From NCBI GenBank assembly GCA_016839605.1, contig JAEOTX010000039.1, forward strand, positions 32,001-96,000: a DNA stretch of 64,000 nt. Reading direction: 5' to 3'. A program made the translations under genes and the position numbers. Numbering within the stretch: position 1 is the stretch's first letter; each line of letters begins with the position of its first letter. Source of the stretch: Candidatus Thorarchaeota archaeon (GTDB taxonomy: Archaea; Asgardarchaeota; Thorarchaeia; Thorarchaeales; Thorarchaeaceae). Shown in pieces: positions 59,745 through 62,296 of this stretch. Under the pieces are notes generated by a model, which was not told where the DNA came from, did not search any database, and saw only the letters and a program-made list of their open reading frames with translations.

Positions 59745-60143
59745 ATGAATGACAGTGTGTTTCGCATGAGTGAGAGCAACCTACTATTGGATTTGGAATT
59801 CGAAGGAGAACTCGTTCTGAATGTGGTTCTAGAGAGGATCAAGGCGCCCCTCATTGTCGAGGACATCAAATCAATGCTCCCTCTTGAAGGAAGAGCCGCG
59901 TTAATGCGAGATGAGATGCAAATAACTCTCGGCATCAGAAGAGGAAATATTAAACCAACCAAGGAAGTCAAGCGCGGAGACATAGCATACATGCCTTTAG
60001 GAGGAAACCTTTGCATCTACGTCACTGACAAAACCACGTTTAGCCCAGTTACAATCATTGGACATGTAGAATCCAAAGGTGATGAGCTGGATGGATTGAA
60101 GAACATCAGACGAGGAAGCAAAGCGGTACTCAAGACTAATTGA
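59745..60143 (+). CDS. cyclophilin-like fold protein (TM1367/DUF369-like)
   Basis: LPLEG, V.RGDIAY.P.G..LCIY, SPV.IIG. Confidence 0.8.
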   Translation: MNDSVFRMSESNLLLDLEFEGELVLNVVLERIKAPLIVEDIKSMLPLEGRAALMRDEMQITLGIRRGNIKPTKEVKRGDIAYMPLGGNLCIYVTDKTTFSPVTIIGHVESKGDELDGLKNIRRGSKAVLKTN

Positions 60144-60149
60144 CTTGCT

Positions 60150-60704
60150 CTAAAGACCCTGCTGCAAGTTGCGAAGAAGAAGCTCATTTTCATCAGGCTC
60201 TATCACGGTGGGATCTACGACTATACCTGGCTCATTAGCCTCAATGACTACATCAATACCAGATTGACTGACTTTCTTTATTCCTGAGTGCGATAGTGCT
60301 CTTACGCGTAGTTGTGTGGTGTCAAACTCGGTTCTATCTGCCGCTTCAACCGCCTTTACATCTCTGCGCAGTTTCGTCTTTGTTATTCTGAGCTGTTCCT
60401 TTAATTGAACCAGTTGGAGCTGAAGATCGATTCGCTCCCGATCTGCCTCTTCGAATTTTGCTACCACATCATCATACTGGGTCTTTGAAACCAATTTCTG
60501 ACTCTGATCAATCCAAGTTATGGTGGTGCCATCAAACCGACGTTTTGTCGACACTTGTCCTAAAGCTTTGAGTACAGCAATCACATCATAGATTCGACGC
60601 TTAGGAGTGGCGAGCTGTTCAGCTAAAACATCGCTTCTAACGCCTTCCTCCCCACATTCCTGAATTATTCTAACCGCAGTCTTCGCCAAATCTACAAGTT
60701 TCAA
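60150..60704 (-). CDS. E2F/DP-family winged-helix transcription factor homolog with coiled coil
   Basis: L..L.K..V.IIQE...LA..L...KRRIYDV..VL..LG.V......I.W matches the E2F DNA-binding domain; heptads follow. Confidence 0.85.
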   Translation of the reverse strand: MKLVDLAKTAVRIIQECGEEGVRSDVLAEQLATPKRRIYDVIAVLKALGQVSTKRRFDGTTITWIDQSQKLVSKTQYDDVVAKFEEADRERIDLQLQLVQLKEQLRITKTKLRRDVKAVEAADRTEFDTTQLRVRALSHSGIKKVSQSGIDVVIEANEPGIVVDPTVIEPDENELLLRNLQQGL

Positions 60705-60961
60705 AGTCGCACCCCACTGACAAGCCGGCGAGAGTCTCCACAGAGCACTCTTCCTCTATAGGATTCATCTACTCTATTTAAAGGTAGGTGTTATCTCTGC
60801 GATTTTCCGAACTAATTAACTGATAACCTTAATTATAATTATCGGACGGGTTCGTCGAAAAATCGACGGTTTCGTATTACTTACACCTACCGCTAATTAC
60901 TTAACTCGCGTCTTTGGCAAAAGAACGCAGGTTTCATACAAGTTTCTGCGGAGAGATTGCT

Positions 60962-62296
60962 ATGACCAGAAAAAAAGTTATCATCATGGGTGCAGCAGGC
61001 CGGGACTTCCACAACTTCAATGTGTTCTTTCGAAACAACGAAGACTATGAGGTTGTTGCGTTCACTGCTGAGCAAATACCGGGTATTGGGGATAGATTGT
61101 ATCCTCCAGAGCTATCTGGAGATCTCTATCCTGACGGCATCAAAATCTACCCAGAAGAGAAGCTACCAGAACTAGTCGAGAAATTTGAAGCTGAACAGTG
61201 CATTCTGGCATATTCTGACCTGTCCTATGATACGGTGGGTCACAAGATTGCTTGGGTGAATAGTATTGGTGCAGACATTAGACTCATGGGCACTAACACT
61301 ACGATGTTGAAAAGCAAGAAGCCACTTGTAGCAATCTGTGCCGTAAGAACTGGATGCGGAAAGAGCCAGACCTCTCGACGAGTGAATCAGATTCTTGTTG
61401 ATATGGGACTTAAGCCTGTTAACATACGCCATCCGATGCCATACGACCCCGACCTTACGACCCAGATAGCACAGCGCTACGAGGTTCTGGGAGACTTGGA
61501 CAAGTATAATTGCACGATTGAAGAACGTGAAGAGTACGAACCCATGATCAACATGGGCGTGATCCTCTATGCTGGGGTTGACTACGGTGAAATTCTGAGC
61601 CAAGCTGAGGAGGAAGCAGATGTAATAACTTGGGATGGAGGGAACAATGACTTTTCCTTCTATCGCCCAGACCTGTTCATCGTAATCGCAGATCCACACA
61701 GACCAGGGCATGAAGTGTCCTACTATCCAGGAGAAACCAACCTCATAATGGCGGATGTTGTCATCATCAATAAGGTTGAAACTGCGGACTATGATTTCGT
61801 GGAAGAAGTTAGGGATAACATCATGCGTGTCAATCCAGGTGCGGTCATCATAGAAGCTGCCTCACCTGTCACTGTAGAAGACATGAGTGTGATTCGTGGA
61901 AAGAGAGTGCTTATTGTGGAGGATGGACCCACAGTCACACATGGAGATATGCCATATGGAGCGGGATACATCGCAGCAAGAAAGGCAGGGGCTGAAATTG
62001 TAGACCCAAGGCCATTCGCGGTAGGCTCTATTAAGGACACTTTTGAGAAGTACTATCATCTTGAGGATGTCCTACCAGCAATGGGATACGGTAAGACGCA
62101 GATGAAAGAGCTTGAAGATACAATCAACAAAGCAGACGTGGATGCTGTAGTAATTGGCACTCCGATTGATCTGGGGCGACTCATCAAGATCAATAAACCA
62201 AGTGTTAGAATCAGATATGACCTACAGGAGATTGGTAGGCCTAATCTCGAAGACATTCTTGCTGAGTTTGTTGAGAAAAAGGGCTTGAAGAAATAG
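60962..62296 (+). CDS. COG2403 P-loop NTPase (cyclic 2,3-DPG synthetase-related; ArcE arginine synthetase-like)
   Basis: MGAAGRDFHNFN, AVRTGCGKS, RHPMPY, TIEEREEYE, WDGGNND, EDGPT.THG, LPAMGY; ATG at 60962 after GGAG. Confidence 0.85.
   Translation: MTRKKVIIMGAAGRDFHNFNVFFRNNEDYEVVAFTAEQIPGIGDRLYPPELSGDLYPDGIKIYPEEKLPELVEKFEAEQCILAYSDLSYDTVGHKIAWVNSIGADIRLMGTNTTMLKSKKPLVAICAVRTGCGKSQTSRRVNQILVDMGLKPVNIRHPMPYDPDLTTQIAQRYEVLGDLDKYNCTIEEREEYEPMINMGVILYAGVDYGEILSQAEEEADVITWDGGNNDFSFYRPDLFIVIADPHRPGHEVSYYPGETNLIMADVVIINKVETADYDFVEEVRDNIMRVNPGAVIIEAASPVTVEDMSVIRGKRVLIVEDGPTVTHGDMPYGAGYIAARKAGAEIVDPRPFAVGSIKDTFEKYYHLEDVLPAMGYGKTQMKELEDTINKADVDAVVIGTPIDLGRLIKINKPSVRIRYDLQEIGRPNLEDILAEFVEKKGLKK

Follow-up and report, generated by a model that had tools for sequence, protein, structure and literature searches.

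A Thorarchaeotal homologue of E2F/DP transcription factors with a coiled coil and a conserved C-terminal tail, and candidate E2F-type sites at thyA/nrdD and at a gene for a lysine-rich protein

The window analyzed here is the whole stretch of 64,000 nucleotides from a Candidatus Thorarchaeota contig, and the gene under study encodes an E2F-like protein on its reverse strand (Table 1). The open reading frame and its KRRIYD motif (codons aag-cgt-cga-atc-tat-gat) lie exactly where a preliminary description, made from the sequence, had placed them. The start codon is TTG (60704-60702), with GGGGTG ahead of it at 60715-60710 and an in-frame stop upstream. The order of genes in 11 Thorarchaeota loci is a 192-aa gene, a DUF7847 gene and a 460-aa P-loop gene, then the divergent E2F-like gene, a convergent cyclophilin-like gene and a cluster of vWA genes; NCBIfam gives no match for the E2F-like protein or its neighbours. 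The cyclophilin-like gene is adjacent in all 11 of these loci and in all four long-form loci of other Asgard families, the only neighbour that is kept beyond Thorarchaeota, and its product may be a functional partner of the E2F-like protein. The 460-aa P-loop gene (60914-62296, forward strand) is 80-87% identical across Thorarchaeota genera, and its product gives only weak matches, to cyclic 2,3-diphosphoglycerate synthetase (9sxb, E=1e-3) and to cobW.

Table 1. Location of the features discussed; positions are those of the window unless a contig is named.
Feature	Position	Strand	Basis and remarks
E2F-like protein gene	60150..60704	-	184 aa, TTG start; full-length conservation in ~120 orthologue clusters
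E2F/DP-type winged-helix DNA-binding domain (residues 1-65)	60510..60704	-	PF02319, hhalign, 1cf7_A
KRRIYD recognition-helix motif (residues 35-40)	60585..60602	-	Sequence; invariant positions in 30 Asgard sequences
Coiled-coil / leucine-zipper-like helix (residues 74-123)	60336..60485	-	AlphaFold2, heptad phase, in-register alignment
Conserved four-strand beta module (residues 124-170)	60195..60335	-	AlphaFold2 of the tail alone; Asgard conservation
C-terminal amphipathic helix (residues 172-183)	60156..60191	-	AlphaFold2; in Thorarchaeota, variable elsewhere
TATA-like box TTTAAATA	60775..60782	-	~75 nt upstream of start; putative promoter element
Conserved upstream element TCGGAAAATCG	60800..60810	-	Conservation in Thorarchaeota upstream regions
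Second copy of the element, inside a palindrome, GTCGAAAAATCGAC	60855..60865	+	Sequence match
Cyclophilin-like gene (PF04126)	59745..60143	+	Pfam; convergent with the E2F-like gene
252-aa Lys-rich protein gene	G000:C221:11969-12724 (L062:169-924)	-	KKKKKK N-terminus

The N-terminal domain is a winged helix of true E2F/DP type, as the preliminary description had proposed. Residues 6-65 match Pfam E2F_TDP (PF02319) over profile positions 8-64 of 65 with E=1.1e-8 and 35.1 bits, above the curated cut-off of 25.7 bits, and this cut-off is passed in none of 14 control prokaryote genomes. E2F_TDP matches are obtained for all 30 family members (best E 6.5e-11), and R36, R37, Y39, D40 and W64, which include the RRxYD signature, are invariant in 30 Asgard sequences. 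AlphaFold2 predicts helices at residues 3-17, 24-31 and 35-48 and strands at 51-56 and 59-64, a winged helix that Foldseek superimposes on PDB entry 1cf7_A with a TM score of 0.80, an rmsd of 1.6 and 31% identity; the top PDB sequence matches are E2F8 (4yo2) and E2F4 (1cf7), in single-sequence and family-profile searches alike.

Beyond the winged helix, both the coiled coil and the beta-rich C-terminal segment that had been anticipated are borne out. For the full protein AlphaFold2 predicts one long helix spanning residues 74-123 (pLDDT >90 mid-helix), in which conserved aliphatic/hydrophobic positions follow a heptad phase (0.44 at a/d vs 0.13 elsewhere). When the Asgard alignment was compared by hhalign with 10, then 46, eukaryotic E2Fs, 102-104 columns were aligned with Prob 98.7-98.9 and E about 1e-16 (Prob 98.7 and E=1.5e-16 for the set of 46), along a path that starts at helix 1, crosses the wing and continues for ~40 residues of the coiled coil with no shift in register; the coiled coil by itself reaches only Prob 31-46. 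The tail has pLDDT <50 in the full-length monomer model; modelled alone (58 sequences, mean pLDDT 81) it forms four strands (residues 133-136, 142-148, 151-156 and 161-164, pLDDT 83-94) and a terminal helix, and its pattern kF.t..lrIr....kI.rV..sGiEvvIEa...GivV.P is common to all Asgard long forms and conserved across Asgard groups. The further proposal that this tail is an E2F marked box found no support from profile comparison or fold comparison. It is suggested by a language-model lead: an ESM Atlas feature search with residues 112-184 only places two E2F_CC-MB clusters on top (0.79 and 0.77), as does the tail of a 31%-identical orthologue (0.80 and 0.77), scores of 0.77-0.80 that the tool itself treats as no more than a lead. 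The marked box forms as a sandwich between two molecules, and a monomer model may therefore fail to show it; we consider the assignment possible rather than probable.

The E2F-like gene is a well-conserved member of the published Asgard family of E2F/DP homologues. Clusters at 90% identity that align along the whole protein number about 120, almost all Thorarchaeotal with proteins of 183 aa, and named orthologues come from Thor-, Hel-, Loki-, Odin-, Baldr- and 'Ran'-archaeia, a Helarchaeota orthologue bearing the NCBI name 'E2F family transcription factor'. An exhaustive profile search with a limit of E 0.001 yielded no more than 66 representatives, comprising full-length relatives of 160-185 aa, shorter forms that are mainly winged helix, and eukaryotic E2F and E2F7/8 (the eukaryotic proteins at E of 2e-7 or weaker), with no DP-type sequence among the matches. 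Matches occur in 140 of 400 genomes of the phylum; within Thorarchaeaceae 76 of 85 genomes have a match, mostly one copy each, and several large Asgard families have none (0/135, 0/31 and 0/22 genomes).

It had been suspected that Asgard E2F-domain matches were already catalogued, and this is so: Eme et al. (2023, Nature 618:992, PMC10307638, Supplementary 4.1.5) describe E2F/DP homologues (arCOG02749) in most Asgard groups, and a 2024 review counts E2F among the cell-cycle regulators present in Asgard genomes. The domain match itself is thus not new. Eme et al. [quoted passage not shown] The protein described here belongs to the same family and differs from the homologues as published in that its alignment extends into the coiled coil and is followed by a conserved C-terminal module.

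Comparison with eukaryotic proteins shows both likeness and difference. With typical E2F1-6 (DNA-binding domain in 1cf7, coiled coil plus marked box in 2aze) the Asgard protein has in common the RRxYD winged helix, which leads straight into a coiled coil of matching register and then a strand-rich region; unlike them it has no DP partner, no Rb-binding transactivation tail (the protein stops at residue 184) and no N-terminal arm, and its own tail is shorter (~60 aa), with marked-box homology only putative. The atypical E2F7 and E2F8, one of which (4yo2) is the best PDB sequence match, resemble it in acting without DP, but carry two winged helices per chain and no coiled coil, whereas the Asgard protein has one winged helix and a coiled coil. 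The genome from which the window comes (80% complete) has one E2F_TDP gene, and in it DP (PF08781), E2F_CC-MB (PF16421) and RB_A give nothing over cut-off, the best RB_A score being only 13.6 bits. Because the gene is single-copy and the genome has no DP, a homodimer is the most likely state, and self-pairing of the E2F-like protein is plausible on these sequence grounds, where typical E2F1-6 form heterodimers. Of the earlier idea of a homodimeric ancestor-like E2F, the homodimer part therefore stands as plausible.

Candidate sites for such a protein were found in the same genome and its relatives, and those of Thorarchaeaceae fit the consensus TTTSGCGC(SAAA) of typical E2Fs. In the window's genome 19 of 99 TTTSGCGC sites (19%) are intergenic, vs 7.4% for controls (40 shuffled motifs). 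A perfect TTTGGCGCCAAA at G000:C221:12931 (L062:1131-1142) lies ~200 nt upstream of the gene for a 252-aa Lys-rich protein that has no Pfam or PDB match, and TTTGGCGCCAAA or a one-off variant occurs 167-273 nt upstream of this gene in 30 of 30 Thorarchaeaceae loci, the window's genome included, with an exact TTTSGCGC in 29 of the 30. A second E2F-type site occupies a fixed position relative to the nrdD start, -574 to -645, in 26 of 29 Thorarchaeaceae loci (18 exact; for example TTTCGCGCCAAA and TTTCGCGCGAAA), and the other 134 kb of those loci contain only five exact E2F-type sites. On one side of this site lies a thymidylate synthase gene (thyA, PF00303), adjacent in 29 of 31 loci, and on the other, pointing away from it, a thioredoxin-like gene with nrdD behind it. 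In the window's genome nrdD lies at the end of a contig and thyA is missing from the assembly, and the thyA-nrdD site is consequently not visible there; genomes of the same genus have GTTTGGCGCCAC or GATTGGCGCCAC at this position. Classic targets of E2F include thymidylate synthase and ribonucleotide reductase.

Several observations define the range of these sites. E2F-type sites upstream of nrdD are absent from 20 loci of E2F-less Asgard genomes and from 23-24 of 25 loci of E2F-positive families other than Thorarchaeaceae, and the site ahead of the 252-aa homologue is absent from 11 loci outside Thorarchaeaceae (six E2F-positive and five E2F-less). The 252-aa protein family itself extends beyond Thorarchaeaceae, to the E2F-positive families f2 and f16 and to E2F-less genomes of f13 (11/12) and f8 (1/31). 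Restriction of the sites to Thorarchaeaceae means that they represent one evolutionary event and one clade-level feature, and the putative link from protein to sites comes from the conserved RRxYD head and not from co-occurrence. None of the papers searched ties Asgard E2F to the thyA/nrdD or 252-aa-gene promoters.

Three further observations concern the surroundings of such sites. A recurrent TTTACTAGAA / TTCTAG element flanks the thyA-nrdD site ~50 nt to either side (L073-L101), and one genus group has it ahead of the E2F-like gene as well (e.g. L002, L014); it could represent either a Thorarchaeota promoter element or a site for some other factor. The genes beside other E2F-type sites in the window's genome are mostly without Pfam names. 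A MutS2-like gene (G000:C17:2-1921, L060, reverse strand; 640 aa here) is preceded at a distance of 115 nt by CGCGCCAAA, a site kept only within the window's genus; the protein, of ~770 aa and highly conserved (63-91% identity between genera), carries an HHH motif at its N-terminus.

The reading that we favor, and hold to be moderately probable, is that this Thorarchaeotal E2F/DP homologue is a sequence-specific regulator, probably a homodimer, that reads TTTSGCGCSAAA sites at the 252-aa gene and at thyA/trx-nrdD. The RRxYD recognition helix of the E2F-type winged helix would contact DNA, the coiled coil of ~50 residues, placed as in E2F, would together with the tail pair two copies, and the resulting homodimer would read the symmetric E2F-type sites. 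Its probable targets would be the Lys-rich 252-aa protein gene and the divergent thyA / thioredoxin-nrdD promoter region, the latter serving dNTP synthesis, and the outcome at these promoters could be activation or repression. Several points weigh against this reading: the GCGC palindromes could belong to a different factor; the sites occur in Thorarchaeaceae only; one Thorarchaeaceae genome (G324, 91% complete) with no detected E2F-like gene retains the 252-aa-gene palindrome, without the nrdD site; and none of 35 orthologous regions upstream of the E2F-like gene itself contains an E2F-type site, so that autoregulation through a site of this type was rejected.

What the gene's own upstream region does contain is a different element. 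A TAAATA-type box is placed similarly to the TATA-like box of Table 1 in most orthologous upstream regions. Of 35 non-identical Thorarchaeota upstream regions, 20 carry the TCGGAAAATCG element at -104 to -116 and a further two carry it at -83 and -128; it has no exact match elsewhere in the window or in the 16-kb orthologous loci. In the form TTCGRAAAATCG its conservation across Thorarchaeota genera is confined to the stretch that separates the divergent E2F-like and 460-aa genes. The 14-mer TTCGAAAAATCGAA, allowing up to one mismatch, has five genomic sites, of which four are intergenic (0.13 with shuffled motifs). Archaeal regulators commonly control their own genes, and these observations together would fit an E2F-fold regulator that reads its own-promoter element TTCGRAAAATCG/TTCGGAAAATCG, combining autoregulation with a small mixed regulon, in which case the GCGC palindromes would be the sites of another factor. 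We nevertheless judge this unlikely: in eukaryotic E2F/DP the RRxYD motif contacts a GCGC core, which the element does not have, the element is not seen outside Thorarchaeota, and the genes beside its other sites share no theme. A common regulon for TTCGAAAAATCGAA was indeed rejected on this account, the neighbours being a methyltransferase, a geranylgeranyl-reductase-like protein, a NosD-like protein, an ABC ATPase, FG-GAP and WD40 proteins and Ile-tRNA synthetase.

The same leader region also contains a small upstream open reading frame (60670-60768, reverse strand; MNPIEEECSVETLAGLSVGCDF..., 32 codons from an ATG at 60768) that overlaps the main TTG start in a different frame. Leader peptides of the type M..E(E/V)CS.E..AG(L/F) turn up ahead of many orthologues, in each of the three frames with respect to the main start, and this recurrence indicates a conserved leader ORF or RNA element and not an N-terminal extension.

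That the protein is instead a structural or otherwise non-transcriptional DNA-binding protein, combining winged helix and coiled coil as do Sso10a, ScpB and Hop2-Mnd1, and not a gene-specific regulator, appears improbable. Foldseek with the whole model does also return ScpB, Hop2-Mnd1 and generic winged-helix proteins, all with comparably weak scores, and one source calls an orthologue 'regulator of replication initiation timing'; the sequence homology, however, is specific to E2F_TDP, Pfam returned no match to Sso10a-, ScpB- or Hop2-Mnd1-type families, and specific fixed-position sites are kept in Thorarchaeaceae.

The linkage to the vWA cluster that the preliminary description had singled out holds as synteny, the order E2F-like, cyclophilin-like, vWA-375-414 being present in 9 of 11 Thorarchaeota loci, and this order could suggest that the E2F-like protein regulates the adjacent vWA genes. 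Several observations speak against such regulation: vWA genes are missing beside the E2F-like gene in the two remaining Thorarchaeota loci (L037 and L040) and in all non-Thorarchaeota loci examined, the opposite-strand cyclophilin-like gene lies between, and neither conserved motif was found upstream of the vWA genes. Since the vWA genes are next door only in Thorarchaeota, the linkage is lineage-specific synteny, and regulation of the cluster is very improbable.

Least credible, to the point of being nearly negligible, is a TrmB-type sugar regulator merely resembling E2F: TrmB proteins do share an N-terminal winged helix followed by a coiled-coil helix, PF01978 gives weaker matches in 25 of 30 family members and one JGI record labels an orthologue TrmB, but E2F_TDP outscores TrmB across the family (30 of 30 members, best E 6.5e-11 vs 5e-6), so that the comparison that had been proposed as the means of refutation favors E2F, the window protein has no TrmB match in Pfam even at E up to 10, RRxYD is invariant, and there is no C-terminal sugar-binding domain, for which 184 aa would leave no space.

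Returning to the E2F-type regulator that we favor, the analysis adds several leads to what is published for the family: the E2F-register coiled coil with a conserved pairing-type tail, of putative common ancestry with E2F, the conserved cyclophilin-like neighbour, and the clade-wide candidate E2F-type sites at thyA/nrdD and at the 252-aa gene. A bolder version, in which the complete E2F core, made up of winged helix, coiled coil and marked-box-like pairing module, already existed in Asgard archaea as a homodimer and controls thymidylate synthase and ribonucleotide reductase of Thorarchaeaceae through TTTSGCGCSAAA, is tentative, and we think it somewhat doubtful. E2F is the master switch for eukaryotic entry into DNA synthesis, and the origin of its network is an open question, the published view being that what the Asgard homologues have in common with it ends with the DNA-binding domain. 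Since the sites are known from a single Asgard family, caution about deep ancestry is advisable. If the bolder version is true, the link between E2F and DNA-precursor synthesis either predates eukaryotes or arose in parallel, and if both the pairing module and the thyA/nrdD sites hold, the molecular design of E2F and part of its regulatory logic would be older than eukaryotes, or would have been convergently recruited.
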